Source of the DNA: an uncultured Clostridiaceae bacterium | Lineage (GTDB): Bacteria > Bacillota > Clostridia > DUPQ01 | DNA: 64,000 bases | Direction of reading: 5' to 3' | NCBI GenBank assembly: GCA_964563155.1 | Contig: CAZLVL010000007.1 | Coordinates: 6,389 to 70,388 of the forward strand | Shown: in pieces, positions 5,199-62,759 of the stretch | How positions within the stretch are numbered: the stretch's first letter is position 1 | Layout: each line of letters starts with the position of its first letter | Notes under the pieces: generated by a model | What the model was told of the DNA's origin: nothing | Seen by the model: only the letters and a program-made list of their open reading frames with translations | Databases searched by the model: none | Position numbers and translations under genes: made by a program

Positions 5199-6125
5199 AT
5201 GTATAATCTCTTGCATCTTAAATATGCTCTAGAGGTGGAAAAAACTGGTTCATTTTCCAAGGCTGCTCAAAACCTATACATGAACCAGCCCCAAGTTTCC
5301 AAGGCCATAAAAGAGTTGGAAACCTCTTTAAATATAATCATATTTGATAGAACTCCTGCAGGGGCTGTGGTTACAGCTAAGGGAAAAGAGTTTTTTAAAC
5401 ATGCTAGAAATGTTATTAATGAAGTAGAGCAGATGGAAAAGCTTTCTACTAAGGCAATTAAGAGTAACAAGGTCTTAAACATTTCTGTTCCTAGGGCCAG
5501 CTATGTCTCCTATGCCTTTACAGAGTTTTTAAACTCTATTAAAAAAGACCATGCCTTAAATGCTGACTACAGAGAAACCCATTCAGCTAGGGCCATGAAA
5601 AGTGTTTCCAAGTCTGAAAACAATTTGGGGATTATTAGATACAGAAAGAGGTTTGAAGAATACTTTTTAACCGCCTTAGATAAGTATGATTTGGTTTATG
5701 AGGACATTTTTTCCTTTGAATACCTACTTTTAATGTCTAAAGATTCTCCTATGGCTAAAAAAGAAAAGATTTATATGGAAGATATACAAGATAAGATTGA
5801 GATTATTCATGGGGATATTTCCATTCCTGCTAGGGCTTCTAGCAGGCAAGATATCTTAAAACTAGGTAAAGAAAAAAAGATTTCTGTCTATGAAAGGGCC
5901 AGTCAATTAGAAATGCTGGACAGAATCCCTGAAACCTTTATGTGGGCATCTCCTATGCCTCAATATATTTTAGACAAATTCAATTTAATCCAAAGAAAAT
6001 GTGAAGGTGGTGTAAATGTGTATAAAGATATATTTATATACAAAAAAGACCATATTTTAAGTGATCTTGAAATACATTTTATGGAGATTGTAAAAAAGAC
6101 AGCTGAAAAATTAAATAGACTATAG
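5199..6125 (+). CDS. LysR-family transcriptional regulator
   Basis: N-terminal HTH (LKYALEVEKTGSFSKAAQNLYMNQPQVSKAIKELE) followed by ~200 aa of co-inducer domain. Confidence 0.8.
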   Translation: MYNLLHLKYALEVEKTGSFSKAAQNLYMNQPQVSKAIKELETSLNIIIFDRTPAGAVVTAKGKEFFKHARNVINEVEQMEKLSTKAIKSNKVLNISVPRASYVSYAFTEFLNSIKKDHALNADYRETHSARAMKSVSKSENNLGIIRYRKRFEEYFLTALDKYDLVYEDIFSFEYLLLMSKDSPMAKKEKIYMEDIQDKIEIIHGDISIPARASSRQDILKLGKEKKISVYERASQLEMLDRIPETFMWASPMPQYILDKFNLIQRKCEGGVNVYKDIFIYKKDHILSDLEIHFMEIVKKTAEKLNRL

Positions 6126-6204
6126 ATAATGCTATATCGATAATGGAATATCGATATTCTAAAATGCATTCTACCCTAAGGTCATATTTCCTTTTATAAT
6201 GTAA

Positions 6205-6222
6205 TTGTTAAAACTTTAACAA
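6205..6222 (+). promoter_or_regulatory. Rex operator, perfect palindrome TTGTTAAAACTTTAACAA
   Basis: Matches the clostridial Rex consensus TTGTTAA-N4-TTAACAA exactly. It lies just downstream of a TATAAT (6195-6200) and ~75 bp upstream of rex. Confidence 0.65.
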
Positions 6223-6296
6223 TGTAAGGAATATGACTTTTTTCTTACATACAAAAAGAAAGGAGAGGTGCAAAGCATAGCTAGCACAAAGAGAAA

Positions 6297-6926
6297 ATGA
6301 ATCAAGTGTCAAGACAAACATTGGAAAGATTACCTCTTTATCTAAACTATCTAAAAAGTTTGGACTCTAATCTGCCAGAAAACATATCAGCAAGATGTAT
6401 CGCTGAAACCTTGGGCCTAACAGAAATTCAGGTGAGAAAGGATTTAGCCTGTGTAAGTGATGGGGGAAAGCCCAGAGTAGGTTTTGTATCCCTAGACCTT
6501 ATAAACGATATTGAGAACTTTCTAGGTTACAAGGATGTAAATGATGCAATCTTAGTAGGAACAGGAAAGCTAGGAAAGGCCCTAATGACCTACAAGGGAT
6601 TTTCTGATTATGGACTTAACATTGTTGCGGGTTTTGACATAGATGAAAACATAGTAGAAGAAAAAGAAGAGGGTAGGCCCATTTTTCATATATCAAAAAT
6701 GAAAAATCTCTGCCAAAGAATGAATATAAAGATAGGAATTATAACTGCCCCTTGGGAGGTAGCACAAGAAATAGCGGATGCCATGATTGATAGTGGAATT
6801 TTAGCTATTTGGAACTTTGCTCCTGCCCATATAGAGGTGCCAGAATGTGTTTTAGTTAAAAATGAAAATATGGCCGTTTCGTTGGCATTATTGTCAAAGC
6901 ATCTTAAAGAACAATTGACAAAATAG
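6297..6926 (+). CDS. rex: redox-sensing transcriptional repressor Rex
   Basis: MNQVSRQTLERLPLYLNYL... is a Rex-type N-terminal winged helix. It is followed by a Rossmann NADH-sensing domain (ILVGTGKLGKAL). Confidence 0.85.
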   Translation: MNQVSRQTLERLPLYLNYLKSLDSNLPENISARCIAETLGLTEIQVRKDLACVSDGGKPRVGFVSLDLINDIENFLGYKDVNDAILVGTGKLGKALMTYKGFSDYGLNIVAGFDIDENIVEEKEEGRPIFHISKMKNLCQRMNIKIGIITAPWEVAQEIADAMIDSGILAIWNFAPAHIEVPECVLVKNENMAVSLALLSKHLKEQLTK

Positions 6927-6939
6927 AAGGAGAATGTAT

Positions 6940-9555
6940 ATGAGTAATACAAGAGAAGTTATTGACACTAGAGAAAAACTGCAATTAGCACTGGGAAAAT
7001 TAAGACTAGCTCAAAAAGAGTTTGCCACATTTTCTCAGGAAAAAGTAGACCAAATCTTCAAAGCCGCTGCTATGGCTGCCAATAGTCAAAGGTTGCCCTT
7101 AGCCAAGATGGCTGTGGAAGAAACCAAGATGGGTATTGTTGAAGATAAGGTTATCAAAAATCATTATGCAGCTGAATATATATATAATACATATAAAGAT
7201 ACTAAGACCTGTGGTCTTGTAGAAGAAGATACAATAAACGGTATTAAAAGAATTTTAGAGCCTGTTGGAATTATTGCAGCGGTTATCCCTACAACCAATC
7301 CAACCTCCACCGTCATATTCAAAACCCTCATATCTCTAAAAACCAGAAATGGTATTGTCATAAGTCCTCACCCTAGAGCTAAAAACTCCACCATAGAAGC
7401 AGCTAGAATAGTACTAGAAGCTGCTGTTAAGGCTGGAGCACCTGAGGGCATTATTGAATGGATTGATGTGCCAAGTTTAGAAATGACCAACACTGTTATG
7501 AAAGAATGTGATTTAATCCTAGCAACAGGTGGCCCTGGTATGGTTAAAGCAGCCTACTCTTCTGGAAAACCTGCAGTTGGAGTTGGAGCTGGTAATACTC
7601 CTGCCATTATTGATAAAAGTGCAGACATCCTTTTAGCTGTTAACTCCATTATCCACTCTAAAACCTTTGATAATGGTATGATTTGTGCTTCTGAACAGTC
7701 AGTTATTGTGGATAAGACCATATACAACAAGGTTAAAAAAGAGTTTGAATACAGGGGATGCTACTTTTTAAACAAGGAAGAAACTGAAAAGGTTCGTAAA
7801 ACCATACTAATAAATGGGGCCTTAAATGCCAAAATAGTGGGCCAAAGTGCCTTTGATATAGCTAAGCTAGCCAATGTGGATGTGCCTACATATACAAAAA
7901 TCCTTATTGGTGAGGTGGTTTCTGTAGATATAGAAGAAGAATTTGCCCATGAAAAACTTTCTCCAGTACTAGCAATGTACAAGGCAGAAGATTTTGAAGC
8001 TGCCATAACAAAAGCTCAAAAACTAATAGAAGATGGTGGAATGGGACATACCTCTTCCATATATATAGATAGTTTAAATGCTAAAGAAAGACTAAACATA
8101 TTTGAAGATGCCATGAAGACCTGTAGGATCTTAATAAATACCCCTTCATCTCACGGTGGTATAGGTGATTTATATAACTTTAAATTAGCACCTTCTTTAA
8201 CCTTGGGTTGTGGTTCTTGGGGTGGAAACTCCACATCAGAAAACGTGGGAGTTAAGCATCTATTAAATATTAAAACAGTGGCAGACAGGAGAGAAAATAT
8301 GTTGTGGTTTAGAGCACCAGAAAAAGTATACATTAAAAAAGGTTGTACCCCCCTTGCCCTAGAAGAACTTAAAAATGTTTTAGGCAAAAAAAGAGTCTTC
8401 ATTGTAACTGACGAGTTTTTATTCAAAAACGGCTATACCAAACCTGTTACAGATAAACTAAATGAAATGGGCTTAGCACATCAAGTTTTCTTTGAAGTTA
8501 CTCCAGATCCTACCTTGGCTTGTGCTAAAGCTGGAGCTAAGGCTATGAGTGCCTTCCAACCAGACTGTATAATAGCCTTAGGTGGTGGTTCAGCAATGGA
8601 CGCTGCTAAGATTATGTGGGTTATGTATGAACATCCTCAAGTGGACTTTATGGATATGGCTATGAGATTTGCGGACATTAGAAAAAGAGTATACGATTTT
8701 CCTAAGATGGGAAAACTAGCCTACTTCATTGCTATACCTACAACAGCTGGTACTGGCTCAGAGGTAACACCTTTTGCAGTCATAACCGACGAAAAGACCA
8801 ATGTAAAGTATCCTTTGGCAGATTATGAAATAATGCCTAATATGGCTATAGTGGATGCAGACTTTATGATGAATGCTCCCAAGGCTTTAACAGCTGCCTC
8901 TGGTATTGATGCTGTAACCCATGCCCTAGAAGCTTATGCTTCCATGTTGGCAACCGACTACACAGATGCTTTGGCCTTAAGGTCCTTGAAAATAGTTTTT
9001 GAAAATCTTCCCACAGCTTATGAAAAAGGACCAGAAGATTCAAGGGCAAGAGAAAAGATGGCAGACGGAGCTACTATAGCGGGAATGGCCTTTGCCAATG
9101 CCTTCTTAGGAGTATGTCACTCCATGGCCCATAAGTTAGGAGCCTTCCATCATCTACCTCACGGTGTAGCAAACGCTTTGATGATTGAACAAGTCCTAAG
9201 ATTTAATGCATCAGAAAAACCAGTTAAGATGGGAACCTTCCCTCAGTACGACCACCCACATACCCTACAAAGATATGCTGACATAGCCCAATACCTAGGT
9301 TATGCTGGTAAAAATGACAAGGAAAGTTTAGAAAATCTCATAAATGGCTTAAATGACCTTAAAAAGAAGGTAGGAATTAAACAAAGTATTCAAGACTACG
9401 GTATTGATGAGAAGACCTTTATGGACAGCCTAGATGATATGGCAGACCAGGCCTTTGATGACCAATGTACTGGTGCCAATCCCAGATATCCTTTAATAAG
9501 TGAAATTAAGCAAATGTACATAAATGCATACTACAATAGGCAGGAGGAAGTTTAA
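6940..9555 (+). CDS. adhE: bifunctional acetaldehyde-CoA / alcohol dehydrogenase
   Basis: ~870 aa. N-terminal ALDH domain with the catalytic Cys context (NGMICASEQS). C-terminal iron-type ADH domain (GGGSAMDAAK, HSMAHKLG). ATG at 6940 follows AAGGAG with a 7 nt spacer and lies 13 nt after the rex stop. Confidence 0.9.
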   Translation: MSNTREVIDTREKLQLALGKLRLAQKEFATFSQEKVDQIFKAAAMAANSQRLPLAKMAVEETKMGIVEDKVIKNHYAAEYIYNTYKDTKTCGLVEEDTINGIKRILEPVGIIAAVIPTTNPTSTVIFKTLISLKTRNGIVISPHPRAKNSTIEAARIVLEAAVKAGAPEGIIEWIDVPSLEMTNTVMKECDLILATGGPGMVKAAYSSGKPAVGVGAGNTPAIIDKSADILLAVNSIIHSKTFDNGMICASEQSVIVDKTIYNKVKKEFEYRGCYFLNKEETEKVRKTILINGALNAKIVGQSAFDIAKLANVDVPTYTKILIGEVVSVDIEEEFAHEKLSPVLAMYKAEDFEAAITKAQKLIEDGGMGHTSSIYIDSLNAKERLNIFEDAMKTCRILINTPSSHGGIGDLYNFKLAPSLTLGCGSWGGNSTSENVGVKHLLNIKTVADRRENMLWFRAPEKVYIKKGCTPLALEELKNVLGKKRVFIVTDEFLFKNGYTKPVTDKLNEMGLAHQVFFEVTPDPTLACAKAGAKAMSAFQPDCIIALGGGSAMDAAKIMWVMYEHPQVDFMDMAMRFADIRKRVYDFPKMGKLAYFIAIPTTAGTGSEVTPFAVITDEKTNVKYPLADYEIMPNMAIVDADFMMNAPKALTAASGIDAVTHALEAYASMLATDYTDALALRSLKIVFENLPTAYEKGPEDSRAREKMADGATIAGMAFANAFLGVCHSMAHKLGAFHHLPHGVANALMIEQVLRFNASEKPVKMGTFPQYDHPHTLQRYADIAQYLGYAGKNDKESLENLINGLNDLKKKVGIKQSIQDYGIDEKTFMDSLDDMADQAFDDQCTGANPRYPLISEIKQMYINAYYNRQEEV

Positions 9556-9556
9556 A

Positions 9557-10306
9557 ATGAAGTTGGATAAGATTATAGCTGTAAGAACCAGCAAGACCAT
9601 TTATAGGGATAAAGACAAGGTAATAAAGCTTTTTAATGAAGATTATTCCAAGGCTGATATTCTTAATGAAGCCCTAAACCAAGCCAGAGTGGAAGAAACC
9701 GGCTTAAACATCCCTAAAATCTTAGAAGTGACCAAGATAGAAGGAAAATGGGCCATTGTACTAGAATTTATTGAAGGAAAAACCCTAGCTCAAATCATGG
9801 AAGAGGACAAGGAGAACTTTGACAAACACCTGGAAAGATTTGTGGACTTACAAATGGAAATGCACACCCATAAGGCTCCTTTGTTAAATAAACTAAAGGA
9901 CAAGATGAACAGGAAGATTACAGAAACCGGCCTGGATGCAACCATTAGATATGACCTTCACACCCGCCTAGAAAGTATGCCAAAAGGAACCAAGCTTTGT
10001 CATGGAGACTTTAATCCTAGTAACATTATTATTACTCCAGATGATAAAGCATATATCCTAGACTGGTCCCATGCTACTATGGGTAACGCTTCAGCGGATG
10101 TAGCCAGAACCTATTTACTCTTTTGGCTATCTGGAAACATAGACGGAGCAGAAAAATATTTAGAACTTTTCTGCAAAAAGAGCGACACAGCCAAGCAATA
10201 TGTGCAAAAGTGGATACCAATTGTAGCAGCCTCCCAATCAGTTAAGGGCAAGGCAGAAGAAAGAGAATTTTTATTACATTGGGTAAATGTAGTTGAATAT
10301 CAATAA
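9557..10306 (+). CDS. protein-kinase-like fold phosphotransferase (APH / choline-kinase family)
   Basis: Catalytic-loop-like CHGDFNPSNIII and ILDWSHATMG (APH/ChoK pattern). GGAGGAAG RBS precedes ATG at 9557. Begins 1 nt after the adhE stop and overlaps the next gene. Confidence 0.6.
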   Translation: MKLDKIIAVRTSKTIYRDKDKVIKLFNEDYSKADILNEALNQARVEETGLNIPKILEVTKIEGKWAIVLEFIEGKTLAQIMEEDKENFDKHLERFVDLQMEMHTHKAPLLNKLKDKMNRKITETGLDATIRYDLHTRLESMPKGTKLCHGDFNPSNIIITPDDKAYILDWSHATMGNASADVARTYLLFWLSGNIDGAEKYLELFCKKSDTAKQYVQKWIPIVAASQSVKGKAEEREFLLHWVNVVEYQ

Positions 10307-10322
10307 AAAAGAGGAGAGAAGT

Positions 10323-10565
10323 ATGAAAATAACAGTATGTATAGGAAGTTCATGTCATTTAAAGGGATCTAGACAGGTAGTAGAGTCATTACAATACCTT
10401 ATAGGAGAGCATAACTTAAAAGACGAGATTGATTTATCTGGTACCTTTTGTATGAACAATTGTCAAAATGGAGTTTGTGTTACCTTGGATGAAGAATTCT
10501 ATTCTCTCTCCCAAGATACGGTTAAAAGCTTTTTTGAAACAGAGGTCTTGCCTAAGATTAAATAG
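10323..10565 (+). CDS. thioredoxin-like [2Fe-2S] ferredoxin (HfsA-like small Fe-S subunit)
   Basis: KITVCIGSSCHLKGS...GTFCMNNCQNG gives a four-Cys thioredoxin-like 2Fe-2S pattern (NuoE/HymA-like). GAGGAG RBS precedes ATG at 10323. Confidence 0.7.
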   Translation: MKITVCIGSSCHLKGSRQVVESLQYLIGEHNLKDEIDLSGTFCMNNCQNGVCVTLDEEFYSLSQDTVKSFFETEVLPKIK

Positions 10566-10735
10566 AGTGTCTGATAAATATTTAAAAGTAAGAAAGCAAG
10601 AAAAGAAGAAAAGATAATATTGGTCACTTAAGAGAGACAAAATTGAGAAAAAAGAGTCTTCCTCTCTTAAGATGAGCCAAAATGAGTGAAAAGTAGAAAA
10701 CAAAAGATTAAAAAAGATAGAAGGTGGACATATAA

Positions 10736-12412
10736 ATGAAAGAATTTTTAAGATTTAAAAAATCCAATTGTAAAAACTGCTATAAATGCATCAGGCATTG
10801 CCCAGTAAAATCCATAAGGTTTTCTGGTAACCAAGCCCATATTATGGGAGATGAATGCATTTTATGTGGCCAATGCTTTGTTGTGTGTCCCCAAAATGCC
10901 AAAGAAATATCTGATAACAGAGAAACTGCTAAGGTAATGATAGCATCCAAAGTACCAGTTATAGCCAGTGTCGCCCCTTCTTTTGTAGCCAATTACAATG
11001 GCATGGGCATAAAGGCTTTAGAAAAGGCCCTACAAAAGTTGGGTTTTCATAGTGCTGAAGAAACAGCTATTGGGGCTAAGTTGGTAAAAGATGAATATGA
11101 CAAAATGCTAAAGGCAGAAGAAAAAGATATCATTATTACCTCTTGTTGTCACAGTGTTAATTTACTAATACAAAAACATCATCCAAAAGTTTTACCCTAT
11201 TTAGCAGATGTCTTAAGTCCCATGTTAGCCCACAGTCTGGATATTAAAAGAAGATATCCTGAGGCAAAAACCATATTTATTGGACCTTGCTTAGCTAAAA
11301 TGGATGAGGCTGATAGATACCCTAGAATAACCGACTGTGTTTTAACCTTTGATGATTTAACAAAATGGTTTGAAGAAGAAAAAATCCAACTAGACGAAGT
11401 AAGAGACCTAGAAGAAGAAAGTAAAACCAGATTGTTTCCCACAGCGGGAGGAATCTTAAAAACCATGGCTTGTGAAAACCAAAACTACACATATATGGTC
11501 ATAGATGGAATTGAAAACTGCAAGGCAGCTATTAAGGATATTGAAAGTGGCAATTTAAGCAAATGCTTTATAGAGATGTCTGCCTGTAAGGGGTCTTGTA
11601 TTGATGGTCCAGTTATGGAAAAGTATCATCCAACTCCCATAAGAAGCTTTAAAGAGGTAAATAATTATGCAGGTAAAAAGGACTTTTTAGTAAAGCCCTT
11701 GCAAGAGGGAAGTATAAGGATGGGTTATGCTCCCATTGAGATAGAATCTTCCATGCCCTCAGAAGAAGAAATAATCAGTATTTTAGGTCAAATTGGAAAG
11801 AAGAAAAAAGAAGATGAATTAAACTGTGGCTCATGTGGATATGACACTTGTAGGGAAAAAGCAATTGCAGTTCACCGAGGAAAAGCAGATTTTACTATGT
11901 GCTTACCCTTTTTACAGGCTAGATCTCAAAGCTTTTCTGACACAATTATTGGAAATACCCCCAATGGCATATTAGTACTAAACGAAGATTTAGAAGTACA
12001 ACAAATAAACAAGGCAGCCATGAAGCTAATGAATATTAGAAGTGTATCTGATGTAGTAGGAGAGCCTGTAGTAAGAATACTAGACCCTAAGGACTTTTTA
12101 GAGGTTAAACTGACAGGAAAAATCATAAGAGACAAGGTTACATATTTAGCAGATTATGATAAATACCTAGAAATGACCACCTTACACGATAGGGAGTACA
12201 AGATAATCCTTTGTATTATGAGAGATGTCACTGATTACTACAAGGATAAGGCCAAAAAAGAAGTTATTAGTAAGCGAACCATTGATACAGCTGACAAGGT
12301 AGTGGAAAAGCAAATGAGAGTAGTTCAAGAAATAGCCTCTCTCTTAGGAGAAACAGTAGCTGAAACCAAGGTAGCTTTGACAAAGCTGAAGGAGACCATA
12401 TCTAATGAATAA
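10736..12412 (+). CDS. sensory-type [FeFe]-hydrogenase with C-terminal PAS domain (HfsB/HydS-like)
   Basis: N-terminal 2x[4Fe-4S] region (CKNCYKCIRHCP, CILCGQCFVVCP). H-cluster motifs: L1 variant ITSCCH, L2 GPCLAK, L3 EMSACKGSCIDGP. An extra Cys-x2-Cys-x4-Cys cluster. C-terminal PAS-like segment (GNTPNGILVLNEDLEVQQINKAAMKLMN). Confidence 0.8.
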   Translation: MKEFLRFKKSNCKNCYKCIRHCPVKSIRFSGNQAHIMGDECILCGQCFVVCPQNAKEISDNRETAKVMIASKVPVIASVAPSFVANYNGMGIKALEKALQKLGFHSAEETAIGAKLVKDEYDKMLKAEEKDIIITSCCHSVNLLIQKHHPKVLPYLADVLSPMLAHSLDIKRRYPEAKTIFIGPCLAKMDEADRYPRITDCVLTFDDLTKWFEEEKIQLDEVRDLEEESKTRLFPTAGGILKTMACENQNYTYMVIDGIENCKAAIKDIESGNLSKCFIEMSACKGSCIDGPVMEKYHPTPIRSFKEVNNYAGKKDFLVKPLQEGSIRMGYAPIEIESSMPSEEEIISILGQIGKKKKEDELNCGSCGYDTCREKAIAVHRGKADFTMCLPFLQARSQSFSDTIIGNTPNGILVLNEDLEVQQINKAAMKLMNIRSVSDVVGEPVVRILDPKDFLEVKLTGKIIRDKVTYLADYDKYLEMTTLHDREYKIILCIMRDVTDYYKDKAKKEVISKRTIDTADKVVEKQMRVVQEIASLLGETVAETKVALTKLKETISNE

Positions 12413-13577
12413 CCTTTGTACCGATGTAGGATACAACAGTCTGAATAAATACCAAGAACTTTTATGTGGAGATTATATTGAATTTATAAATCAAGATGAA
12501 GGTACTAAGGTTCTAGTTTTAGCAGATGGCTTGGGTTCTGGTGCAAAGGCCAATATCTTATCTACCCTTACAGCTAAAATAATCTCTACCATGATGGCAG
12601 AGGGCTGTTCCATAGAAGAATGTGTAAAAACCATTGCTGAAACCTTGCCAGTCTGCTCGGTTAGGGGCATTGCCTATTCTACCTTTACCATAATTCGCAT
12701 AGTTAACAATGAATATGCAGAAATAATATGTTATGACAATCCTCAGGTCATTCTTTTAAGAGATGGTAAATCCTATGATTTTCCTAAAAATCTTATACAA
12801 ATAGATGGTAAAGATATTTATCAGTCTCGTATTGAGCTTTTGGAAAACGATATATTTATAGCCCTAAGTGATGGGGTCATCCATGCAGGTATTGGAAACA
12901 GCTTAAACTTTGGTTGGCTAAGAGAAGATATTATTTCTTTTATGGAAAATATTTACCATGCAGGCTTTACTGCAAAAACCCTATCTACCATTCTTTTAGA
13001 TGAATGCTTTGCCCTTTATGGGGGGCAACCTGGAGATGATACCAGCGTTTGTGTTTTAAGAATCAGAAAAAGAGAACCGGTTAATCTTTTAATAGGACCT
13101 CCCCATAACAGGCATGACTGTAACAAGATGATGTCTCTATTCTTTTCTAAAGAAGGAAAACACATTGTCTGTGGAGGAACAACCTCTAATATTGCTGCAG
13201 ATTTCTTGAAAAAACCCCTAATACCCAATTTGGATTTCTTTGACCCAGAAATTCCACCTACAGCAGAGATTGAAGGGGTAGATTTGGTTACAGAAGGAGT
13301 AATTACCATAAACAAGGTTTTAGAGTATGCAAAAGATTACCTTTTGACCAACAACTCATACAAGCACTGGAACTACAAAAAAGATGGGGCTTCTAAGGTT
13401 TCTAGAATGCTGTTTGAAGAGGCAACAGATATAAATTTCTATGTAGGTAAGGCTGTAAATCCTGCCCATCAAAATCCAGATTTGCCAATAAATTTTAGTG
13501 TAAAAATGCAATTAATTTCCGAATTGTCCAAGTGTTTAGGACAAATGGGTAAGAATATAAAAGTTAGTTATTTTTAG
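12405..13577 (+). CDS. PP2C-type (SpoIIE-like) serine phosphatase (HfsC-like)
   Basis: LVLADGLGSGAKANILS and downstream Asp-rich metal-binding segments are typical of PPM phosphatases. Overlaps the upstream gene by 8 nt. Confidence 0.75.
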   Translation: MNNLCTDVGYNSLNKYQELLCGDYIEFINQDEGTKVLVLADGLGSGAKANILSTLTAKIISTMMAEGCSIEECVKTIAETLPVCSVRGIAYSTFTIIRIVNNEYAEIICYDNPQVILLRDGKSYDFPKNLIQIDGKDIYQSRIELLENDIFIALSDGVIHAGIGNSLNFGWLREDIISFMENIYHAGFTAKTLSTILLDECFALYGGQPGDDTSVCVLRIRKREPVNLLIGPPHNRHDCNKMMSLFFSKEGKHIVCGGTTSNIAADFLKKPLIPNLDFFDPEIPPTAEIEGVDLVTEGVITINKVLEYAKDYLLTNNSYKHWNYKKDGASKVSRMLFEEATDINFYVGKAVNPAHQNPDLPINFSVKMQLISELSKCLGQMGKNIKVSYF

Positions 13578-13587
13578 GAGGGATAAA

Positions 13588-15015
13588 ATGAGAAAATTTG
13601 ATACAAAGGTTCAATTGTTAAAGTATAAGGTATTAAAGGAAGTTGCAAAACATGCCTGGCAGGATACCCTATTAGAATCTTTAACAGATATTCCCAAAAC
13701 TATTATCCCTGGTGAAGATGCAACCATGAGATGTTGTGTCTATAAAGAAAGGGCAATACTCAACGAAAGAGTAAAGCTAGCCATGGGTGGAGATAAGAAT
13801 AATCCTAATGTTATTGAGGTTATAGATATAGCCTGTGATGATTGTCCAGTAGGGGGCTATGAAGTATCTCAGGCTTGTAGGGGCTGTATTGCTCACAGAT
13901 GTGAAGATGTTTGTCGCTTTGGGGCCATTACCTTTGATTCCTCACAAAAAGCCCATATAGATAAAAGTAAGTGTGTAGAGTGTGGAATGTGTGCCAAGGT
14001 ATGTCCCTTTAGTGCCATTATGAATCATAAAAGGCCCTGTGAAAGAGCATGTAAGGTAAAAGCTATTTCTATGGATGAAAAAAGAGCTGCTTGTATTGAT
14101 AATGACCAATGTACAGCTTGTGGGGCCTGTGTATATCAATGCCCCTTTGGTGCCATAACAGATAAATCATACATTTTAAATGTAATTGATATCTTAAAAA
14201 AGAGCCAAGATAATGAAAAACACAAGGTATATGCAGTGGTTGCTCCCTCTATCTCCAGTCAGTTTTCCTACGCCAAGTTGGGACAAGTTATTTCAGGTAT
14301 AAAAGAATTAGGTTTTTATACTGTAGTAGAAGCAGCCCTTGGTGCAGACATGGCAGCTGATTTAGAAGCTAAAGAACTATATGAAAAAGGCTTTCTCATA
14401 AGTTCATGCTGTCCTTCCTTTGTACATTACACAAAAAAAGAGTTCCCAGAACTGGCTGACAGCATTTCTCACAACCTATCACCAATGGCCATTATTGCTA
14501 AATATATTAAAGAAACAGACCCTACAAGTAAGATTGTATTTATAGGGCCCTGTACTGCAAAAAAGGCTGAGTTTAAAATACCTGAAGTTAATAAATATAT
14601 AGATAGTGTTCTTACCTTTGAAGAACTTCAAGCCCTTTTTGACAGCAAGGAAATGGACATAAATACCTTGAAAGAAGATGTCTTAGACAATGCTTCCTAC
14701 TTTGGTCGTATTTTTGCCAGATCCGGTGGTCTTTCAGATGCCATAAGACAAGCCATAAGAGAAAATGGCTTGGATGAAGAAAAATATGACCCCATAGCTT
14801 GTGATGGCATTGAAGAGTGTAGAAAAGCACTACTAAAAGCTAAAAGCAAGGTTTTAAAGAATAACTTCATAGAAGGCATGGCCTGTGAAGGGGGATGTAT
14901 TGGTGGAGCAGGATGCTTAACCCATGGCCCTAAGGATAAAAGCGAAGTGGATAAGTATGGAATGGAAGCCTATGAAAAAAAGATATCCCACGCTATAAGC
15001 ATGATAAAACTCTAA
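13588..15015 (+). CDS. [FeFe]-hydrogenase catalytic protein with N-terminal ferredoxin-like clusters (HfsD-like)
   Basis: Several CxxCxxCxxxCP ferredoxin motifs. Canonical H-cluster motifs L1 SSCCPSF, L2 GPCTAKK and L3 EGMACEGGCIGGAGC. Confidence 0.8.
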   Translation: MRKFDTKVQLLKYKVLKEVAKHAWQDTLLESLTDIPKTIIPGEDATMRCCVYKERAILNERVKLAMGGDKNNPNVIEVIDIACDDCPVGGYEVSQACRGCIAHRCEDVCRFGAITFDSSQKAHIDKSKCVECGMCAKVCPFSAIMNHKRPCERACKVKAISMDEKRAACIDNDQCTACGACVYQCPFGAITDKSYILNVIDILKKSQDNEKHKVYAVVAPSISSQFSYAKLGQVISGIKELGFYTVVEAALGADMAADLEAKELYEKGFLISSCCPSFVHYTKKEFPELADSISHNLSPMAIIAKYIKETDPTSKIVFIGPCTAKKAEFKIPEVNKYIDSVLTFEELQALFDSKEMDINTLKEDVLDNASYFGRIFARSGGLSDAIRQAIRENGLDEEKYDPIACDGIEECRKALLKAKSKVLKNNFIEGMACEGGCIGGAGCLTHGPKDKSEVDKYGMEAYEKKISHAISMIKL

Positions 15016-15175
15016 GAGTCCATATTATGCTCTACTGGTTACATAGTCACGGTTGTTTTACCTCTGGCAAGATATAACAAAGTGGCTTTGTAATCAGTTT
15101 TTTTATCTTAAAACTTACAAACAAATTCCTTTTATCATCATAGATTAATTTGATATAATAAAAACGGAGATAAAA

Positions 15176-15418
15176 ATGTTTGTATTTAAAGCAGCAAAAC
15201 TTATACCTAAATTATCAAAAACCCTTTCTCTTCCAAAGGTTGCATTTTTTGGACCCTTTACTTTTTTCTACTACCTAATTACCTTTGTATCCATATATTT
15301 AGGTGTTCGTATGTCTAAAAAGGCAGGAAAAAGATTTTGGATATATTTATCTGCCATCCCCAGCCTTATTTTACTCATTCTTATTCCTATTCTTAGAATA
15401 GTTAAGAAAATTTGGTAA
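15176..15418 (+). CDS. small two-TM membrane protein, hypothetical
   Basis: 80 aa hydrophobic ORF. GGAG RBS sits 7 nt upstream of the ATG. Confidence 0.35.
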   Translation: MFVFKAAKLIPKLSKTLSLPKVAFFGPFTFFYYLITFVSIYLGVRMSKKAGKRFWIYLSAIPSLILLILIPILRIVKKIW

Positions 15419-15545
15419 TGTGTCTTTGTCACTGAAAATATTCTATAAAAGAAGTAGGATATCCCTTGATATTTAGATAACCAGAAGGATTTGGTAGAAA
15501 GGAAAATCCAATTGCTTTGTAAGTTGATTGGATTACGCATGGACA

Positions 15546-15950
15546 ATGAATAAAAAAAATTGGTTAATACTATTAAGCCTATTTATTATCGCTACACTGG
15601 TGCTAGGAGCTTGTAGTGTTCAAAAGGTAGAAAAAAATACATACAAACAAATTAGTGCCAAAGAGGCAAAAGAATTAATGGATACCCAAGAAGGTTACAT
15701 AATCTTGGACGTTAGAACAAGAGCTGAGTATCTTGAAGGCCATATACCCAATGCTGTGCTTTTACCCAATGAAAGTATAGGAAGCACACCAATTGAGCAA
15801 TTGCCAGATAAGGATCAGTTAATCTTGGTCTATTGTAGGTCTGGTAATAGAAGCAAACAGGCTTCTGCCAAATTAGTAAATCTAGGCTATACAAATGTGC
15901 ATGAGTTTGGGGGCATAGGTAGTTGGCCCTATGATATTGTTAAGGATTAA
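15546..15950 (+). CDS. single-domain rhodanese (sulfurtransferase) lipoprotein
   Basis: Lipobox LVLGAC. Rhodanese fold with the active-site CRSGNRS loop. Start codon uncertain (15528 or 15546). Confidence 0.7.
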   Translation: MNKKNWLILLSLFIIATLVLGACSVQKVEKNTYKQISAKEAKELMDTQEGYIILDVRTRAEYLEGHIPNAVLLPNESIGSTPIEQLPDKDQLILVYCRSGNRSKQASAKLVNLGYTNVHEFGGIGSWPYDIVKD

Positions 15951-16013
15951 TTCTAAATATACATTTAGTTTAGATAGTAATAGAGGATAAGAGGATAAGG
16001 GGAGGATGTTGTT

Positions 16014-17495
16014 GTGAAGAAATATGACTATATTATTATAGGTAGTGGAAGTGGCCTTATGGTTTTAGAGGCTGCTTTGAGTTATGGAAAAAAGTGTGCC
16101 CTAATAGAAAGCTCAAAACTAGGAGGGACCTGTTTAACCAAGGGTTGTATACCCTCTAAGATGCTGGTTTATCCAGCAGATTTAATAAGAGAGACCCAAG
16201 ACTCTTCTCAAATAGGTCTAAGCTATTCTAAACCTCAAGTAGATTGGGATTTAATATCTAAAAGGGTTTGGGAGCAGATTGATTACAATAAAAATATTGA
16301 AGAGAGCCTTAAAAGAACTAGCAATGTAGATTTATATAAAGGATATGGGGAGTTTATTGACGACCATACCCTAAGAGTCAAATATGCTGATGGTAGCTAT
16401 AGTGAAGAGTTAATTGGGGAAAATATAGTTATATCTGTAGGTGCAAGAACCAATATCCCACCTATTGAAGGCCTTGAACAAGCAGCCTATGTTACAGCTG
16501 AGTCCTTTTTTGGTCCAAAGTATCCTAAGAAGATATATAACCGTTTGGCAATTTTAGGGGCAGGTGCCATAGGTACAGAGTTTGCCCATATATTTTCTGC
16601 TTTAGGAAGTAAGGTTACCCTAATTGAAGCCTTACCTAGAATCTTAAGTCTTGAAGAGCCTGAAGTAAGTCAAGTGGTTGAAAACCAACTTACACAAGAC
16701 GGGATTGATATTAAAAAGGCAAGTCTTGCAAAAAAGGTTACCCTTAACGGGGACACAAAGGTCCTTCATCTAGAAAAATCTGATGGTAGCACTGAATTGG
16801 TAGAGTGTGATGAGATATTTATAGCTACAGGGGTAAAATCCAATGGAGATTTATTAAAAATTGAAAACACTAGTTTAGATATAAATATGAAAAACTACAT
16901 AATCACCAATGAACAAATGGAAACAAATGTAGAGCACATTTATGCAATAGGTGATATAAATGGAAAATTCCAGTTTAGACATACTGCCAATAAAGAGGCT
17001 GAAATTTTAGTTCACAACCTATTTATAGATAGTAAAAACAAGAAGTCGGTAAATTATCATGCTGTGCCTTGGGCTGTTTTTACTCATCCTCAAGTTGCCC
17101 ACGTGGGTATGACAGAAGAAGAGGTAAAAAATTGCACAGATTCTTACAAGGTGGGCTACAACCACTATTCTGATATAGTTGCAGGAATTTCTATGGGGTT
17201 TAGTGAAGAATCAGATGTTAATGGCTTTGTAAAACTCATTGTTGGACCAAACAAATCTATTCTAGGAGCTTCTATAGTAGGACCCAATGCTTCTGTTTTA
17301 ATTCAACCCTACGTATACTTAATGAACTGTAATCAAAAATGTGACCAAAAACCAAGAAGGAAACAAAAGGTAGAATTCGATAGTGCAAGAATGATGTGTC
17401 CTCATCTAGGTACCTATACTCCAATGGATGACTCTATGGTAATTCATCCTGCCATGAGTGAGTTAACTGCCTGGGTAACAGAGAGTTTGGAATAA
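16014..17495 (+). CDS. FAD-dependent pyridine nucleotide-disulfide oxidoreductase (class I, Lpd/GR/MerA-like)
   Basis: GTG start 7 nt after AAGGGGAGGA. FAD dinucleotide-binding fold IIIGSGSGL. Redox-active disulfide GGTCLTKGCIPSK. Second Rossmann fold LAILGAGAIGTEF. C-terminal HP dimer-interface motif. Confidence 0.8.
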   Translation: MKKYDYIIIGSGSGLMVLEAALSYGKKCALIESSKLGGTCLTKGCIPSKMLVYPADLIRETQDSSQIGLSYSKPQVDWDLISKRVWEQIDYNKNIEESLKRTSNVDLYKGYGEFIDDHTLRVKYADGSYSEELIGENIVISVGARTNIPPIEGLEQAAYVTAESFFGPKYPKKIYNRLAILGAGAIGTEFAHIFSALGSKVTLIEALPRILSLEEPEVSQVVENQLTQDGIDIKKASLAKKVTLNGDTKVLHLEKSDGSTELVECDEIFIATGVKSNGDLLKIENTSLDINMKNYIITNEQMETNVEHIYAIGDINGKFQFRHTANKEAEILVHNLFIDSKNKKSVNYHAVPWAVFTHPQVAHVGMTEEEVKNCTDSYKVGYNHYSDIVAGISMGFSEESDVNGFVKLIVGPNKSILGASIVGPNASVLIQPYVYLMNCNQKCDQKPRRKQKVEFDSARMMCPHLGTYTPMDDSMVIHPAMSELTAWVTESLE

Positions 17496-18889: not shown

Positions 18890-19146
18890 TTTTTACCTCG
18901 TTAATTTTTTTATAGAACAATAAATCCCATTTTTTATCTTGCTTTTTAATATATTCTCTATATTAACAACATTATGTCTCAATTACAAGTTAATATAGTT
19001 TTGAATAATCGATAGATAAAAGGAGCTTGAGAATCTTTATTAAATATTTGGCTTTTTTATTATATAATGGCATCAGGCAAAAAAATAATATTAAAAGATT
19101 TAGATTTTTGAAGACTATGGTCTGTTAGTTGAAAGTAGGAGAAAAA

Positions 19147-21984
19147 ATGAAAAAATACACAGCTTGGCTTTTAGTTATAATTTTACTCTTAGGATTCTTA
19201 CCATCTTTGGCAAAGGCAGATAGTGAAGAGGATGTCCTCTGGATGACAGGTTTTTATGATAGGGTTCTAGCCTTTAGAGAAGGCTATGCTGCCATAAGTG
19301 TTGAAGAGGGCGAATTTACCTATTATGGCTTTATCAATGTAAATGGAAGTCTGGTTGTAAAACCTCAGTATGACTATCTTTGGGATTTTTATGATGGTTT
19401 AGCCTTGGGTATAAAAGAGGGGAAGTTTGGATATGTTGATACCACAGGTCAAGAGGTTATTCCCTTTATATATGACTATTTAAATTTATTTGAAGATGGC
19501 TTAGCCTTAGGCTTAAAAGATGGTAAACATGGATATATTGATGAAAATAATAATACGATAATTGATTTTATATATGAAGATGGACTTAGTTTTTCACAAG
19601 GCTTAGCTGCTGTAAAAAAAGATGATAAGTGGGGATTTGTAAATACTGAAGGGAAGTTAGTTATTCCTCATAGTTTAGATGATACCTTTAGCTTTTACAA
19701 TGGTAGAACCATTGGTATTGTAGATGAAAAGTGGGGACACCTTGACCTTAATGGCAATTGGCTTATTGAGCCCATCTATGATGACATAGATATGCTCCAT
19801 GAAGGTCTTGTTTGGGCTAGAAAAGATGGTTTTTGGGGGCTTTTAAATGAAAATGGTCTACCTTTAAGTGAATTTGCCTTTTCATATAAGTATTTTTTCA
19901 ATGAAGGTTTATGTCCTGTGAAACTAGGGGATAAATGGGGTTATGTAAATACAAAAGGAGAATTTGCTATAGAGCCTATTTATGAAGGTGCTGACGTTTT
20001 TTCAGATGGCTTGGCTGCTGTTAGCATTAATGACAACTGGGGCTATATTGATAAAGAAGGTAGAGAGGCCTCTGTCTTTATATATGATGAAGCAAATGCT
20101 TTTTTTGATTCTGCAGCAGTGGTAAGACTGCGCCATAAATATGCCTATGTAGGAAAAGGTGGTTATACCTTTTCTAGTTTTGACTATGACTATGCTTATG
20201 ATTTTCAAGATGGATTTGGTCAGGTTTTAAAGGGTGAATATTGGGGTCTTGTAGATATTTATGGTAATGAGGTTTTAGCTCCTGAGTATGATTTTATTGG
20301 TAGGTATTTTGAAGGTCTGGCAAGTATCGAAAAGGACGGAAAAGCAGGCTTTATAGATAAGAGGGGTAATCTTGTAGTTGATTTTAAATATGATTATGCT
20401 TCTTACTTTTCTGAAGGTTTGGCCATAGTGAAATTAGAAGATAAATGGGGTATTTTAAAGAATCCCTTAAAAAGAGCAGAAGATAAGATTAAAAATGAGC
20501 TTAAAAGTTTTAATATTAAATGGTTAGAAGATGACTATTTCGATATTTGGGATTTTAATGAAGGCTTAGCTGGTGTATACAAAGAAGGGAAATGGGGCTT
20601 TATAAATCCTGAAGGAGATTTGGTAGCTCCTTTAAAATATGACGGTGTATGGAACTTTATAGAAGGGCGAGCCCTAGTTTTTTATAACAATTACGTTGGG
20701 GTAATTGATACAAGTGGTAGGGAGGTTTTACCTGTCGAATATGAGTTTGCTGGTTTGTACACCGATGAGCTTATTGAAGTTAGAAAGGATACTCGTTGGG
20801 GATTTGCAGATAAAGATGGCAATATTGTTATTCCGATTCAGTATGATAGAAGTCAAGTTTTTTCAGAGGGGCTAGCCTTTGTTCAAAAAAATAACAAGTG
20901 GGGAGCTGTGGATGGAAAGGGTAATGAAGTAATTCCTTTTATATATGACTATGCCACTTCTTTTGAAGATAATATTGCCAGTGTTGGAATAGACGGTAAA
21001 TGGGGTGTTATTGATAAACAAGGCCAGGTGCTTGTTCCTATTGAATATGATGACATTACATATATCTCTTCTGGCTATGCAGGTGTAGAGAAAGATGGTA
21101 AGTATGCCCTTATAGATATGACTGGTCAACTTCATACAGACTTTATATATGATACTTTTTCCTTTAATGCTGACGGATTGTTTGCTGTAGGAATAGATTA
21201 TAGATATGGATTTATAAATACTAAAGGAGAAGAGGTTGTACCTTTACACTATGACCTAGTGGGAGACTTTTACAAAGGCATAGGAAGTGTTCAAGAAAAT
21301 GACCTATGGGGTCTTGTAGATAAAGAAGGTAATTTTTTAACCGACATAGAATTTGATATGACCATGGGTTATGCAGAAAACTTAATTACGGTTTGCAAAC
21401 AAGGTCTTTGGGGTTATGTCAACTATGAAGGAGAGATGGTAATAGAACCCATCTATGACGATGCTTTTATGTTTATTGAAGGTTATGGCAAGGTTTCAAA
21501 GGATGGAAAAGTAGGATTTTTAGATGAAAAAGGTAATGTGCTCATAGACATCATATATGAGGATGCAGGAAACTTATCTCAAAATCTAATAAGTGTCAAA
21601 AAAGATAATAAATGGGGACTTATAGACAAAGAAGGAAACGAGATTATAGGTTTTCACTTTGATTATATTTCTGATTTTTCAGAAGGTTATAGTCTGGTTA
21701 GACTAGGGTCCTTGTGGGGTATTTTAGATATAGAAAATATATTCTCTGAAGATGATACATCTATAAATGATAAAGAAGATATAGACCCAAATGATAAAGA
21801 CAAGGAAAATGGTAAAGAAGAAGAAAAAATTGACAAAGACCCAGAAAAAGAGGAAACACCACCTGATGATAAAAAGATAAATTATTTAGTTTTCTACTTA
21901 GCTGGAGCTGGTCTATTGCTGGTAGCTCTTGTAATATTTGTAATTGTCTTTATGAAAATGAGAAAGGGAAAAGGTTCTAATTAG
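19147..21984 (+). CDS. WG (KWG)-repeat surface protein: signal peptide, ~24 tandem WG repeats, acidic low-complexity linker, C-terminal TM anchor
   Basis: AGGAG RBS precedes ATG at 19147. Signal peptide LLGFLPSLAKA. Repeated ~36-aa units such as GLAxVKKDDKWGFVNTEGKLVIPxxYDD. C-terminus DKDKENGKEEEKIDKDPEKEETPPDDKK followed by a hydrophobic anchor. Confidence 0.8.
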   Translation: MKKYTAWLLVIILLLGFLPSLAKADSEEDVLWMTGFYDRVLAFREGYAAISVEEGEFTYYGFINVNGSLVVKPQYDYLWDFYDGLALGIKEGKFGYVDTTGQEVIPFIYDYLNLFEDGLALGLKDGKHGYIDENNNTIIDFIYEDGLSFSQGLAAVKKDDKWGFVNTEGKLVIPHSLDDTFSFYNGRTIGIVDEKWGHLDLNGNWLIEPIYDDIDMLHEGLVWARKDGFWGLLNENGLPLSEFAFSYKYFFNEGLCPVKLGDKWGYVNTKGEFAIEPIYEGADVFSDGLAAVSINDNWGYIDKEGREASVFIYDEANAFFDSAAVVRLRHKYAYVGKGGYTFSSFDYDYAYDFQDGFGQVLKGEYWGLVDIYGNEVLAPEYDFIGRYFEGLASIEKDGKAGFIDKRGNLVVDFKYDYASYFSEGLAIVKLEDKWGILKNPLKRAEDKIKNELKSFNIKWLEDDYFDIWDFNEGLAGVYKEGKWGFINPEGDLVAPLKYDGVWNFIEGRALVFYNNYVGVIDTSGREVLPVEYEFAGLYTDELIEVRKDTRWGFADKDGNIVIPIQYDRSQVFSEGLAFVQKNNKWGAVDGKGNEVIPFIYDYATSFEDNIASVGIDGKWGVIDKQGQVLVPIEYDDITYISSGYAGVEKDGKYALIDMTGQLHTDFIYDTFSFNADGLFAVGIDYRYGFINTKGEEVVPLHYDLVGDFYKGIGSVQENDLWGLVDKEGNFLTDIEFDMTMGYAENLITVCKQGLWGYVNYEGEMVIEPIYDDAFMFIEGYGKVSKDGKVGFLDEKGNVLIDIIYEDAGNLSQNLISVKKDNKWGLIDKEGNEIIGFHFDYISDFSEGYSLVRLGSLWGILDIENIFSEDDTSINDKEDIDPNDKDKENGKEEEKIDKDPEKEETPPDDKKINYLVFYLAGAGLLLVALVIFVIVFMKMRKGKGSN

Positions 21985-62009: not shown

Positions 62010-62026
62010 TAGAGAAGAACCCTCTT

Positions 62027-62458
62027 TTACATACCAATTTCTTCTAGTATTTCAATAGCCAGAACTATTGCATTAGGACAAACCTCTTGCATGGTTTCTT
62101 TGTTTTGCTCTCTTTTTTCTTCATCTCTAACATCAAAACCTAATAATTCCTTGCAAAGATAACTTTTATTCCTTTTAACATACTCATCCATAAAACGTAT
62201 GGTTAAATTATTACAATTAGCTTTAGCATCTTGGTCATCTCCACTTTCTTGACCATATTTAAGACCTAAGGCCATAAGAGCACCGGTTACACCACCACAA
62301 ACCTCACCACAGCGCATACCACCACCAAAGGCTCCTGCCATTTTCATGGCTGTATTTTCATCTAATCCTAAGTCCTTAGCATAGGCTCCAATAACCGCCT
62401 GTGAGCAATTGTATCCAGTGGAAAATAGTTCTAAAGCTTTATCAATTCTTTTCTTCAT
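62027..62458 (-). CDS. C_GCAxxG_C_C family putative redox-active protein
   Basis: GYNCSQAVIGAY and CGEVCGGVTGALMALG motifs of the C_GCAxxG_C_C family. 143 aa. Confidence 0.65.
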   Translation of the reverse strand: MKKRIDKALELFSTGYNCSQAVIGAYAKDLGLDENTAMKMAGAFGGGMRCGEVCGGVTGALMALGLKYGQESGDDQDAKANCNNLTIRFMDEYVKRNKSYLCKELLGFDVRDEEKREQNKETMQEVCPNAIVLAIEILEEIGM

Positions 62459-62600
62459 ACTTATTCGTGTGTCTTATGAGTCACACTCCTCCTTGTTTTA
62501 GTAATCTAAGTTTTTGCTACCTATATAGTTACTTATTGTAGGCTAAACATAATTATCCTTTAACATAATATGATACAAGCATAGATTATGCAAAGTTATT

Positions 62601-62670
62601 AAGAAAAGAGGGAAGAGGAGAGAAAAAAGAAAGAAGAAAGAAAAGATAGAGAGAAAAGAAAGAAACCAGC
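62601..62670. repeat. ~70-nt polypurine (A/G-only apart from one T) tract followed by a 9-bp GC-rich hairpin (62661-62682)
   Basis: aagaaaagagggaagaggagagaaaaaagaaagaagaaagaaaagatagagagaaaagaaagaaacc, then GAAACCAGC-TCA-GCTGGTTTC. Confidence 0.8.
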
Positions 62671-62759
62671 TCAGCTGGTTTCTTGGAAAAGAGTAGTGTT
62701 AATTGGTTTGTGTTTCAATGATTATTTGCTTCGTTTATGCCTAATGCTTGCAAGGTGCG

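Follow-up and report, generated by a model that had tools for sequence, protein, structure and literature searches.

In a stretch of 64,000 nucleotides (nt) from an uncultured Clostridiaceae bacterium (contig CAZLVL010000007.1 of assembly GCA_964563155.1; hereafter the window), genes of redox control, ethanol formation and hydrogen metabolism are arranged in one file on the + strand, namely, rex, adhE, a kinase-like gene, a [2Fe-2S] ferredoxin gene, a spacer, hydS (a putative sensory [FeFe]-hydrogenase), a PP2C phosphatase gene and hydA2 (a second [FeFe]-hydrogenase). A sequence-only reading of the window had regarded this direct coupling of a sensory hydrogenase module to rex-adhE as unusual and had suggested that it wires the sensing of H2 and NADH to ethanol formation by protein phosphorylation. 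The questions raised by the locus are whether such a coupling is unusual, how the cluster might work, and to which of its neighbors the kinase belongs. The coupling was found to be ordinary because Ruminococcus albus 7, Clostridium thermocellum and dozens of the sampled genomes share it; the arrangement has been published for the first two and occurs in most of the 80 genomes sampled. The proposed wiring likewise is a model already present in the literature, where it stands as a hypothesis. The region is very probably the orthologue of the rex-adhE-kinase-ferredoxin-hydS-phosphatase-hydA2 cluster of R. albus 7 and C. thermocellum and would work like it. The cluster is already known, and the window holds a well-preserved copy of the published arrangement, which hundreds of fermenting Clostridia possess; this copy adds no new principle.

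The annotation of the R. albus 7 plasmid pRUMAL01 lists, on one strand, LysR, Rex, AdhE, a phosphotransferase, two (2Fe-2S) ferredoxins, a hydrogenase of 558 amino acids (aa), a SpoIIE phosphatase and a 4Fe-4S hydrogenase, i.e., gene content, order and orientation agree with those of the window, including the upstream LysR gene. This cluster (locus L001) was reached by megablast against plasmids, the sole match being 157 nt in the R. albus hydS. Comparison by tblastn over nearly the full length of the proteins showed identities of 44% for Rex, 72% for AdhE, 66% for the kinase, 60% for HydS, 66% for PP2C and 70% for HydA2; HydS has a length of 558 aa in both. Of the two R. albus ferredoxins, the first shares 67% identity with that of the window, and the LysR protein of the window is 37% identical to that at the same position in R. 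albus. The two loci differ in that the window has one ferredoxin gene as against two, has a hairpin-bearing spacer of 170 nt before hydS unlike R. albus, and has an exact Rex box, whereas none with two or fewer mismatches was found upstream of R. albus rex. The R. albus copy is carried by a megaplasmid of 421 kb, while the contigs bearing the window version reach 277 kb and include housekeeping genes. As summarized in PMC5707799 and PMC10838669, Zheng et al. (2014) proposed for R. albus that HydS senses H2 and passes the signal, by way of its PAS domain, to the neighboring Ser/Thr kinase. The R. albus cluster, putatively of eight genes, was 111-fold down when Wolinella removed H2, and the group C hydrogenase was proposed to sense H2 (Greening et al., 2019; PMC6776011).

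The C. thermocellum genes Cthe_0422–0430 (Clo1313_1799–1791) show the same order, including an "aminoglycoside phosphotransferase," a small protein and the sensory hydrogenase. Cthe_0422 is annotated as Rex, 0423 as AdhE, 0424 as the aminoglycoside phosphotransferase, 0425 as a hypothetical protein, 0426 as an Fe-S cluster protein, 0427 as SpoIIE and 0428–0430 as hydrogenase; Cthe_0422–0432 are co-regulated, and the whole block responds to furfural (PMC3848806). The downstream hydrogenase of C. thermocellum is a NuoE/NuoF-linked trimeric enzyme, whereas that of the window is of the monomeric B1 type. Acetivibrio mesophilus (L040), a relative of C. thermocellum, has the same order, with a HydA2 match that is only 27% identical and lies ∼2.8 kb further on. 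The kinase of the window corresponds to Cthe_0424 and, in the model for R. albus, to the "Ser/Thr kinase." The literature search returned no mention of Clo1313_1797, and the only entry for Cthe_0424 was a line in a single transcriptome table.

The hydrogenase module is also known from the hfsABCD operon of Thermoanaerobacterium saccharolyticum, in which, similar to the window, HfsB is a PAS-containing hydrogenase, HfsC a PP2C phosphatase and HfsD a ferredoxin-linked hydrogenase. HfsD is similar to R. albus HydA2, and the operon influences ethanol yield (PMC5707799, PMC11837493). No resemblance to known proteins is described for HfsA, whereas the product of the small gene in the window is clearly a thioredoxin-like [2Fe-2S] ferredoxin. 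In five species, adhE expression and the yield of ethanol rise when hfsB is deleted (PMC5707799), which argues that the sensor feeds into ethanol formation. A system alike in concept is HoxBC-HoxJ-HoxA of Ralstonia eutropha, in which the H2 signal from a low-activity hydrogenase passes via a PAS-containing partner to a phosphorylation step controlling hydrogenase genes (PMC5707799). The proteins are unrelated, however, being a [NiFe] enzyme with a histidine kinase and a response regulator as against an [FeFe] enzyme with a PP2C phosphatase and an APH-like kinase.

The extent of this arrangement was evaluated with the kinase as a query, which retrieved at least 8000 clusters at 90% identity (E < 1e-10). 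The best 120 of these clusters were 248–257 aa long, nearly all 249, and the kinase is encoded in at least 598 species-representative genomes. Gene order was surveyed in the 80 loci closest to the window kinase, which are relatives of one protein and not phylogenetically independent; 55 of them had enough upstream sequence and 62 had at least 6 kb downstream. The gene directly upstream of the kinase was adhE in 54 of the 55 loci, usually at a gap of 10–25 nt. HydS and PP2C genes followed the kinase in 46 of the 62, a HydA2 orthologue in 42 of the 62, and the full order of the window was present in at least 20 of the 80. Small ferredoxin genes stood between kinase and HydS in all 46 loci, two in 35 and one in 11. 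It was observed that rex was adjacent in 24/50 loci and that a LysR gene on the + strand lay just upstream of rex or adhE in 25/50. A Rex-like box with two or fewer mismatches was found upstream of rex or adhE in 31/54 loci (0.0145 expected per 430 bp), including loci without an adjacent rex. Adjacent rex occurred only together with the Hfs module (20/31 vs. 0/10 loci; Fisher p = 0.0005, not corrected for phylogeny). The survey thus showed both the breadth of the kinase and the fixity of its position behind adhE. In 14 of the 25 LysR-bearing loci, LysR is located directly before adhE with no rex between. Two loci with the cluster, L048 and L030, are on contigs that binning assigned to taxa outside Clostridia, Treponema sp. 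and Coriobacteriaceae, respectively, which could reflect horizontal transfer or mis-binning.

Taken as an orthologue of these clusters, the unit would be controlled by Rex binding at 6205–6222, over or just past the promoter, when the NADH/NAD+ ratio is low; Rex would let go of the operator when NADH rises. Derepression would probably yield one seven-gene transcript, as suggested by the sequence together with the co-regulation in R. albus and C. thermocellum. AdhE would dispose of NADH as ethanol and HydA2 of reduced ferredoxin as H2, the two together making up the ethanol-plus-H2 mode that R. albus uses at high H2. HydS, according to the literature hypothesis, may report H2 or the redox state of ferredoxin to the translationally coupled PP2C phosphatase, which would then set the phosphorylation state of a putative target. 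The kinase, with an intact catalytic set and nearly always coupled to adhE, would act on a protein or on a small molecule. The cluster ties NADH sensing by Rex and putative H2 sensing by HydS to product choice, i.e., ethanol and H2 via the ferredoxin hydrogenase versus acetate and H2 via a bifurcating hydrogenase, a choice that shapes the H2 supply to rumen and gut methanogens and limits the ethanol yield of biofuel strains.

Several observations weigh against so close a correspondence. The hairpin-bearing spacer could split the unit into two transcription units; the nearest solved relatives of the kinase by sequence and fold, LicA, APH(3'), FN3K and methylthioribose (MTR) kinase, are small-molecule kinases; and HydS keeps both cysteines of its L1 motif, leaving a catalytic role possible. 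The kinase stands without an adjacent HydS or PP2C gene (6 kb downstream) in 16 of the 62 loci. Furthermore, hfsABCD and adhE of T. saccharolyticum are unlinked, each with its own predicted Rex site (PMC5886521), whereas the module of the window is linked to rex and adhE, and the Thermoanaerobacterium literature (PMC11837493) has no kinase gene among the four hfs genes, whereas the window has one. The features of the cluster are collected in Table 1.

Table 1. Features of the cluster and its upstream and downstream flanks, in window coordinates.
Feature	Position	Strand	Basis
LysR-family regulator, directly upstream of the unit	5199..6125	+	Pfam HTH_1
TATAAT, putative -10 element, 4 nt upstream of the Rex operator	6195..6200	+	read from sequence
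Rex operator TTGTTAAAACTTTAACAA	6205..6222	+	exact match to TTGTTAANNNNTTAACAA
rex, NADH/NAD+ redox-sensing repressor	6297..6926	+	NCBIfam, Pfam, R. albus identity
adhE, bifunctional acetaldehyde-CoA/alcohol dehydrogenase	6940..9555	+	NCBIfam, R. albus identity
APH/choline-kinase-like phosphotransferase, 249 aa	9557..10306	+	Pfam, motifs, fold
Thioredoxin-like [2Fe-2S] ferredoxin, 80 aa, like the C-terminal half of NuoE	10323..10565	+	Pfam
Hairpin within the spacer	~10620..10680	+	minimum free energy z = -2.55; 5/200 shuffles fold as well
HydS/HfsB, 558 aa, putative H2-sensing group C (M2f-type) [FeFe]-hydrogenase	10736..12412	+	Pfam, motifs
SpoIIE/PP2C phosphatase (HfsC), 390 aa	12405..13577	+	Pfam
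HydA2/HfsD, 475 aa, monomeric ferredoxin-type [FeFe]-hydrogenase	13588..15015	+	NCBIfam, canonical H-cluster motifs
Weak terminator-like hairpin ACAAAG-TGG-CTTTGT, then 7 T	15077..15104	+	read from sequence; scan made no call

All sizeable open reading frames between 5199 and 15015 are on the + strand, and the junctions across the seven genes are 13, 1, 16, 170, -8 and 10 nt long. The rex stop codon is at 6924–6926, and the adhE ATG at 6940 is placed 7 nt past AAGGAG at 6927–6932; the alternative ATG at 6934, the start of the listed open reading frame, was set aside as too near this ribosome-binding site, and gene calls on identical metagenome contigs give AdhE 871 aa, which equals the 6940 start. 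The adhE stop codon (9553–9555) is separated by 1 nt from the kinase ATG, which is preceded by AGGAGG. Both junctions had been given as 13 and 1 nt by the sequence-only reading and are borne out by the coordinates. The overlap that it described between the kinase and ferredoxin genes did not stand, as it needs a TTG start at 10293; the ferredoxin begins instead at ATG 10323 with a GAGGAG ribosome-binding site, yielding the 80-aa product found in orthologues and in gene calls, and hence the gap is 16 nt. The phosphatase gene overlaps hydS by 8 nt, and all adopted starts match the gene calls on identical contigs. The gene identifications made in that reading hold by Pfam, NCBIfam and comparison with R. 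albus, as does its view of one contiguous redox unit, the order being kept in many genomes and the R. albus and C. thermocellum clusters being co-regulated.

Promoter and terminator scans revealed no convincing internal promoter and no + strand terminator inside the cluster genes, and a sequence scan found no Rex-like box within the cluster, including the spacer. A single transcript is therefore the most economical reading, given the short junctions and the lack of convincing internal signals. The spacer (10566–10735) is the sole long intergenic gap, and it carries a stable hairpin (z = -2.55). These features, together with the solitary hfs operon of T. saccharolyticum and its own predicted Rex site (PMC5886521), would fit a division into two transcription units, rex-adhE-kinase-ferredoxin and hydS-phosphatase-hydA2, with the hairpin as terminator, attenuator or processing site. 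Such a division is doubtful. The hairpin is not followed by a T-run, and the spacer holds no Rex-like box; the only promoter-like match touching it (10725–10754) is unusable because it spans the hydS start codon. Moreover, the eight genes of R. albus respond as one cluster (PMC6776011), and the spacer is not similar to the related loci of other species, the closest of which (L002) has ∼26 nt between the ferredoxin and hydS matches. Contigs of the same species keep the spacing of the window.

The spacer had been described as structured and 170 bp long. The length was correct, while the structure amounts to the one hairpin, which had no Rfam match and is not shared with other species. Searches gave no Rfam match at E <= 1 in 5900–15400 and none at gathering score across the window, so that a known RNA element was rejected. 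A repeated element was rejected as well, the hairpin being single in the window and missing in the other loci compared. Decay of a second ferredoxin gene was also considered and rejected; tblastn with the second ferredoxins of R. albus and of locus L003 gave chance-level results, and all three frames are rich in stop codons. No second Rex box or promoter was found inside the spacer.

The perfect Rex operator reported upstream of rex was recovered as an exact consensus match. TTGTTAAAACTTTAACAA is the sole exact match to TTGTTAANNNNTTAACAA in the 64 kb, where shuffled sequences lead one to expect 0.01, and it lies 75 nt upstream of the rex ATG (6297). The TATAAT before it has a poor -35 element and was not reported by the consensus promoter scan. 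Rex itself matches the NCBIfam equivalog NF003994 with 279.7 bits (cut-off 130) and has the Pfam domains Put_DNA-bind_N (PF06971, the winged-helix N-terminus) and CoA_binding (PF02629, the Rossmann NADH domain); AdhE matches NF010378 with 1378 bits (cut-off 951). The hairpin and T-run after hydA2 likely mark the end of the unit, an assignment made with low confidence from the sequence. The gene after hydA2 has a TG-extended TATAAT of its own at 15132–15159.

The region between lysR and rex has further features. The best NCBIfam matches of the LysR protein are CidR and AlsR, both far under cut-off; CidR and AlsR are regulators of overflow metabolism. A palindrome, ATATCGATA / TATCGATAT, occurs twice, 6 nt apart, at 6134–6157, between the lysR stop codon and the putative rex promoter, and could be a binding site of the LysR protein or of another regulator. 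At 6178–6244, an 11-nt inverted repeat, AAGGTCATATT / AATATGACTTT, has the TATAAT and Rex box between its arms and a T-run after it; the repeat could form the lysR terminator or an alternative structure competing with Rex binding. The region upstream of rex gave no covariation information, as L082 and L083, two of the same-species contigs L082–L085, are identical there.

The product of hydS has Pfam Fer4 and Fe_hyd_lg_C domains and the Fe-S motif PF04060 (38.6 bits). Its H-cluster motifs are ITSCCH (L1, residues 135–140), GPCLAKMDE (L2) and EMSACKGSC (L3), so that GPC replaces MPC (Met353 to Gly), EMSAC replaces ExMAC (Met497 to Ser) and the L1 proline is replaced by histidine. The change of L1 to TSCCH, noted by the sequence-only reading, was confirmed and is the family norm, 48 of 52 orthologues having (S/T)SCCH; nearly all have EMSAC.GSC. 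The C-terminal motif CGSCGYDTCREKAIAVHRGKADFTMC has the pattern C-x2-C-x4-C-x16-C. The PAS region attributed to the protein is present, downstream of this Fe-S motif, although marginal in the window copy, which falls just under the Pfam cut-offs (PAS_9 24.3 vs. 27 bits; PAS 21.2 vs. 22.6); of 18 orthologues, 17 match PF00989 in the region, the best E-value being 5.9e-8. The nearest NCBIfam model, FeFe_hydrog_B1, scores 182 bits, under its cut-off. Hence, HydS shows the features of group C (M2f) hydrogenases, namely, two N-terminal [4Fe-4S] motifs, the substitutions, the Fe-S motif and the PAS region.

These features are shared with HydS of Thermotoga maritima (Tm HydS, M2f), for which the changes Met353Gly and Met497Ser are described and which also has the two N-terminal [4Fe-4S] motifs, the C-x2-C-x4-C-x16-C motif and a PAS domain (PMC8163306). 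The same work states that the M2e and M2f subclasses do not conserve Cys299. The window HydS and most orthologues, in contrast, keep the Cys-Cys pair and change the proline of TSCCP to histidine; this proton-relay cysteine is not lost in the window HydS, both L1 cysteines of which align to TSCCP of DdH. The retained Cys299 is a difference from Tm HydS and not a ground for exclusion from group C, as judged by alignment, and this HydS lineage may differ biochemically from Tm HydS.

The same cysteines would suit a catalytic subunit of an Hfs hydrogenase complex, an enzyme regulated post-translationally by phosphatase and kinase: the pair is kept in the window HydS and in 48/52 orthologues, its first cysteine starts the proton path of group A enzymes, and the hfs operon has been named as that of the main hydrogenase for H2 production in T. 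saccharolyticum (PMC11837493). A catalytic HydS is nevertheless very unlikely, as Met353Gly, Met497Ser, the extra C-terminal cluster and the PAS region are hallmarks of the putatively sensory group C, and strains deleted for hfsB show altered adhE expression and ethanol yield but no defect in growth (PMC5707799, PMC11837493).

The remaining members of the module are of known type, as had been claimed for both. The phosphatase is a SpoIIE/PP2C protein by Pfam (PF07228, 46.2 bits; cut-off 25), and the PPM aspartate motifs ADGLGSG, SDG and GDDT are conserved in 31 sequences. Its C-terminal domain (residues 221–390, 13065–13574) is conserved as well, with the invariant or nearly invariant stretches CGGTTS and NPAHQNPDLPINF; it was modeled as a Rossmann-like α/β fold with a predicted local distance difference test (pLDDT) score of 85 and had generic structural neighbors only. 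The domain is not a phospho-acceptor of the STAS type. HydA2 is a standard-motif [FeFe]-hydrogenase with the canonical L1–L3 motifs SSCCP, GPCTAKKAE and EGMACEGGCIGG; it matches the B1 family model TIGR04105 (FeFe_hydrog_B1) in full length, with 563.9 bits over residues 4–446 (cut-off 450). Its R. albus orthologue has been labeled group A1 by Greening et al. (PMC6776011), naming varying between sources. The ferredoxin matches Pfam 2Fe-2S_thioredx with 33.5 bits, and its cysteines 6, 11, 43 and 47 form the pattern C-x4-C-x31-C-x3-C.

The kinase matched Pfam APH (PF01636) with 57.6 bits against a cut-off of 23.2, and RIO1 with 39.2 bits. No NCBIfam family passed its cut-off, the models of Bud32, thiamine kinase and CcrZ scoring far below theirs. 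No PF00069 match was obtained at E <= 0.001, so that the protein does not qualify as a Hanks-type Ser/Thr kinase, a class marked by a Pkinase domain with an HRDxKxxN loop, DFG and an activation segment; some orthologues bear a precomputed PF00069 tag. Among the aligned orthologues, K24, H149-G-D151-x4-N156 and D169-W are invariant. The catalytic loop HGDFNPSN and the metal loop LDW are followed by a GNxxxDxA segment of the APH/choline-kinase type, as aligned to LicA. The catalytic Lys, the HxDxxxxN loop, the metal-binding Asp and the bilobal fold place the protein in the APH/choline-kinase-like (eukaryotic-like kinase) superfamily. Most characterized members of the APH/choline-kinase type act on small molecules, and in calling it a "Ser/Thr protein kinase," the literature relies on inference. 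By sequence, the best solved relative is the choline kinase LicA; the AlphaFold model (pLDDT 74) is nearest to APH(3'), LicA, FN3K and MTR kinase, with template modeling (TM) scores of ∼0.5–0.55. The top Foldseek matches were APH(3')-Ia structures, and identity to APH structures is 12–16%.

With APH as the top Pfam match and APH(3')-Ia at the head of the Foldseek matches, the gene at 9557 could be taken for an antibiotic-resistance aminoglycoside phosphotransferase sitting there by chance. This is extremely improbable. The APH(3') model APH_3p (NF033068) gave only 28.3 bits against a cut-off of 205, on which ground a typical antibiotic APH was rejected; the identity to APH structures and the TM score (∼0.55) point the same way. 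The kinase is, moreover, 71–88% conserved over hundreds of species, at its fixed place directly after adhE.

The kinase, the least understood member of the cluster, followed adhE more faithfully than it followed the sensor. HydS, PP2C and HydA2 were all absent over at least 6 kb downstream in the 16 loci L026, L029, L038, L044, L049, L051, L057, L058, L061, L062, L065, L067, L072, L074, L075 and L078, and adhE precedes the kinase in these wherever upstream sequence exists (L044, L061 and L062 have none). Four of the 16 retain a small ferredoxin gene. In L026, the kinase is followed by a sodium:neurotransmitter symporter gene, with a DegV gene on the opposite strand. The kinase and HydS/PP2C are thus not an obligatory pair, since these loci lack the adjacent module and the Thermoanaerobacterium literature consulted names no kinase among the four hfs genes.

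It is possible, though not probable, that the kinase is primarily a partner of AdhE and not the output of the H2 sensor. It would then phosphorylate AdhE, altering the enzyme's filament state or activity, or else act on a small molecule from the acetyl-CoA/acetaldehyde/ethanol branch, and HydS-PP2C-HydA2 would be a separate unit joined downstream in many lineages. The constant upstream adhE, mostly at 10–25 nt and at 1 nt in the window, and the 16 of 62 adhE-kinase loci without HydS or PP2C within 6 kb, such as L026, are consistent with this, as are the fold and motifs of the APH/choline-kinase type. In high-ethanol strains, alcohol dehydrogenase activity was up without aldehyde dehydrogenase activity, and post-transcriptional control was suggested (PMC5707799). 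On the other hand, genomes without an adjacent Hfs module may encode Hfs elsewhere, and the 80 loci, as close relatives of one protein, do not count as independent cases. The literature search on AdhE phosphorylation gave irrelevant matches only. That the 249-aa protein is a dedicated partner of AdhE, controlling it or an ethanol-branch small molecule independently of HydS and PP2C, is a tentative and rather unlikely proposal; if true, many Clostridia of gut and rumen would have an undescribed layer of control over their ethanol fermentation. With the cluster read as the R. albus and C. thermocellum orthologue, the tight, sensor-independent linkage of kinase and adhE is the only forward-looking point and offers a concrete lead for experimental work on C. 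thermocellum or R. albus.

Metagenome contigs as long as 277 kb (ENA ERZ27247346, ERZ4239849; Logan SRR8925768) carry the identical region, with the same flanking genes. The closest species-level genome among the matches listed is a metagenome-assembled genome of uncultured Clostridia, with a kinase identity of 86%. Elsewhere, the window holds transporters and polysaccharide-degrading enzymes, and no further hydrogenase gene was seen among the window genes checked. The source organism is an uncultured saccharolytic member of Clostridia. Toward the end of the window (62001–64000), the guanine-plus-cytosine content rises to 0.42 as against ∼0.35 elsewhere, with no rRNA or other Rfam family detected there. 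Downstream of the cluster, at 15176–17495, an 80-aa open reading frame without a Pfam match, a rhodanese-domain protein and a pyridine nucleotide-disulphide oxidoreductase follow a promoter-like site of their own; these genes are redox- or sulfur-related. Further on, at 19129–21984, a 951-aa protein contains at least 15 WG-containing β repeats (PF14903, 648 bits).

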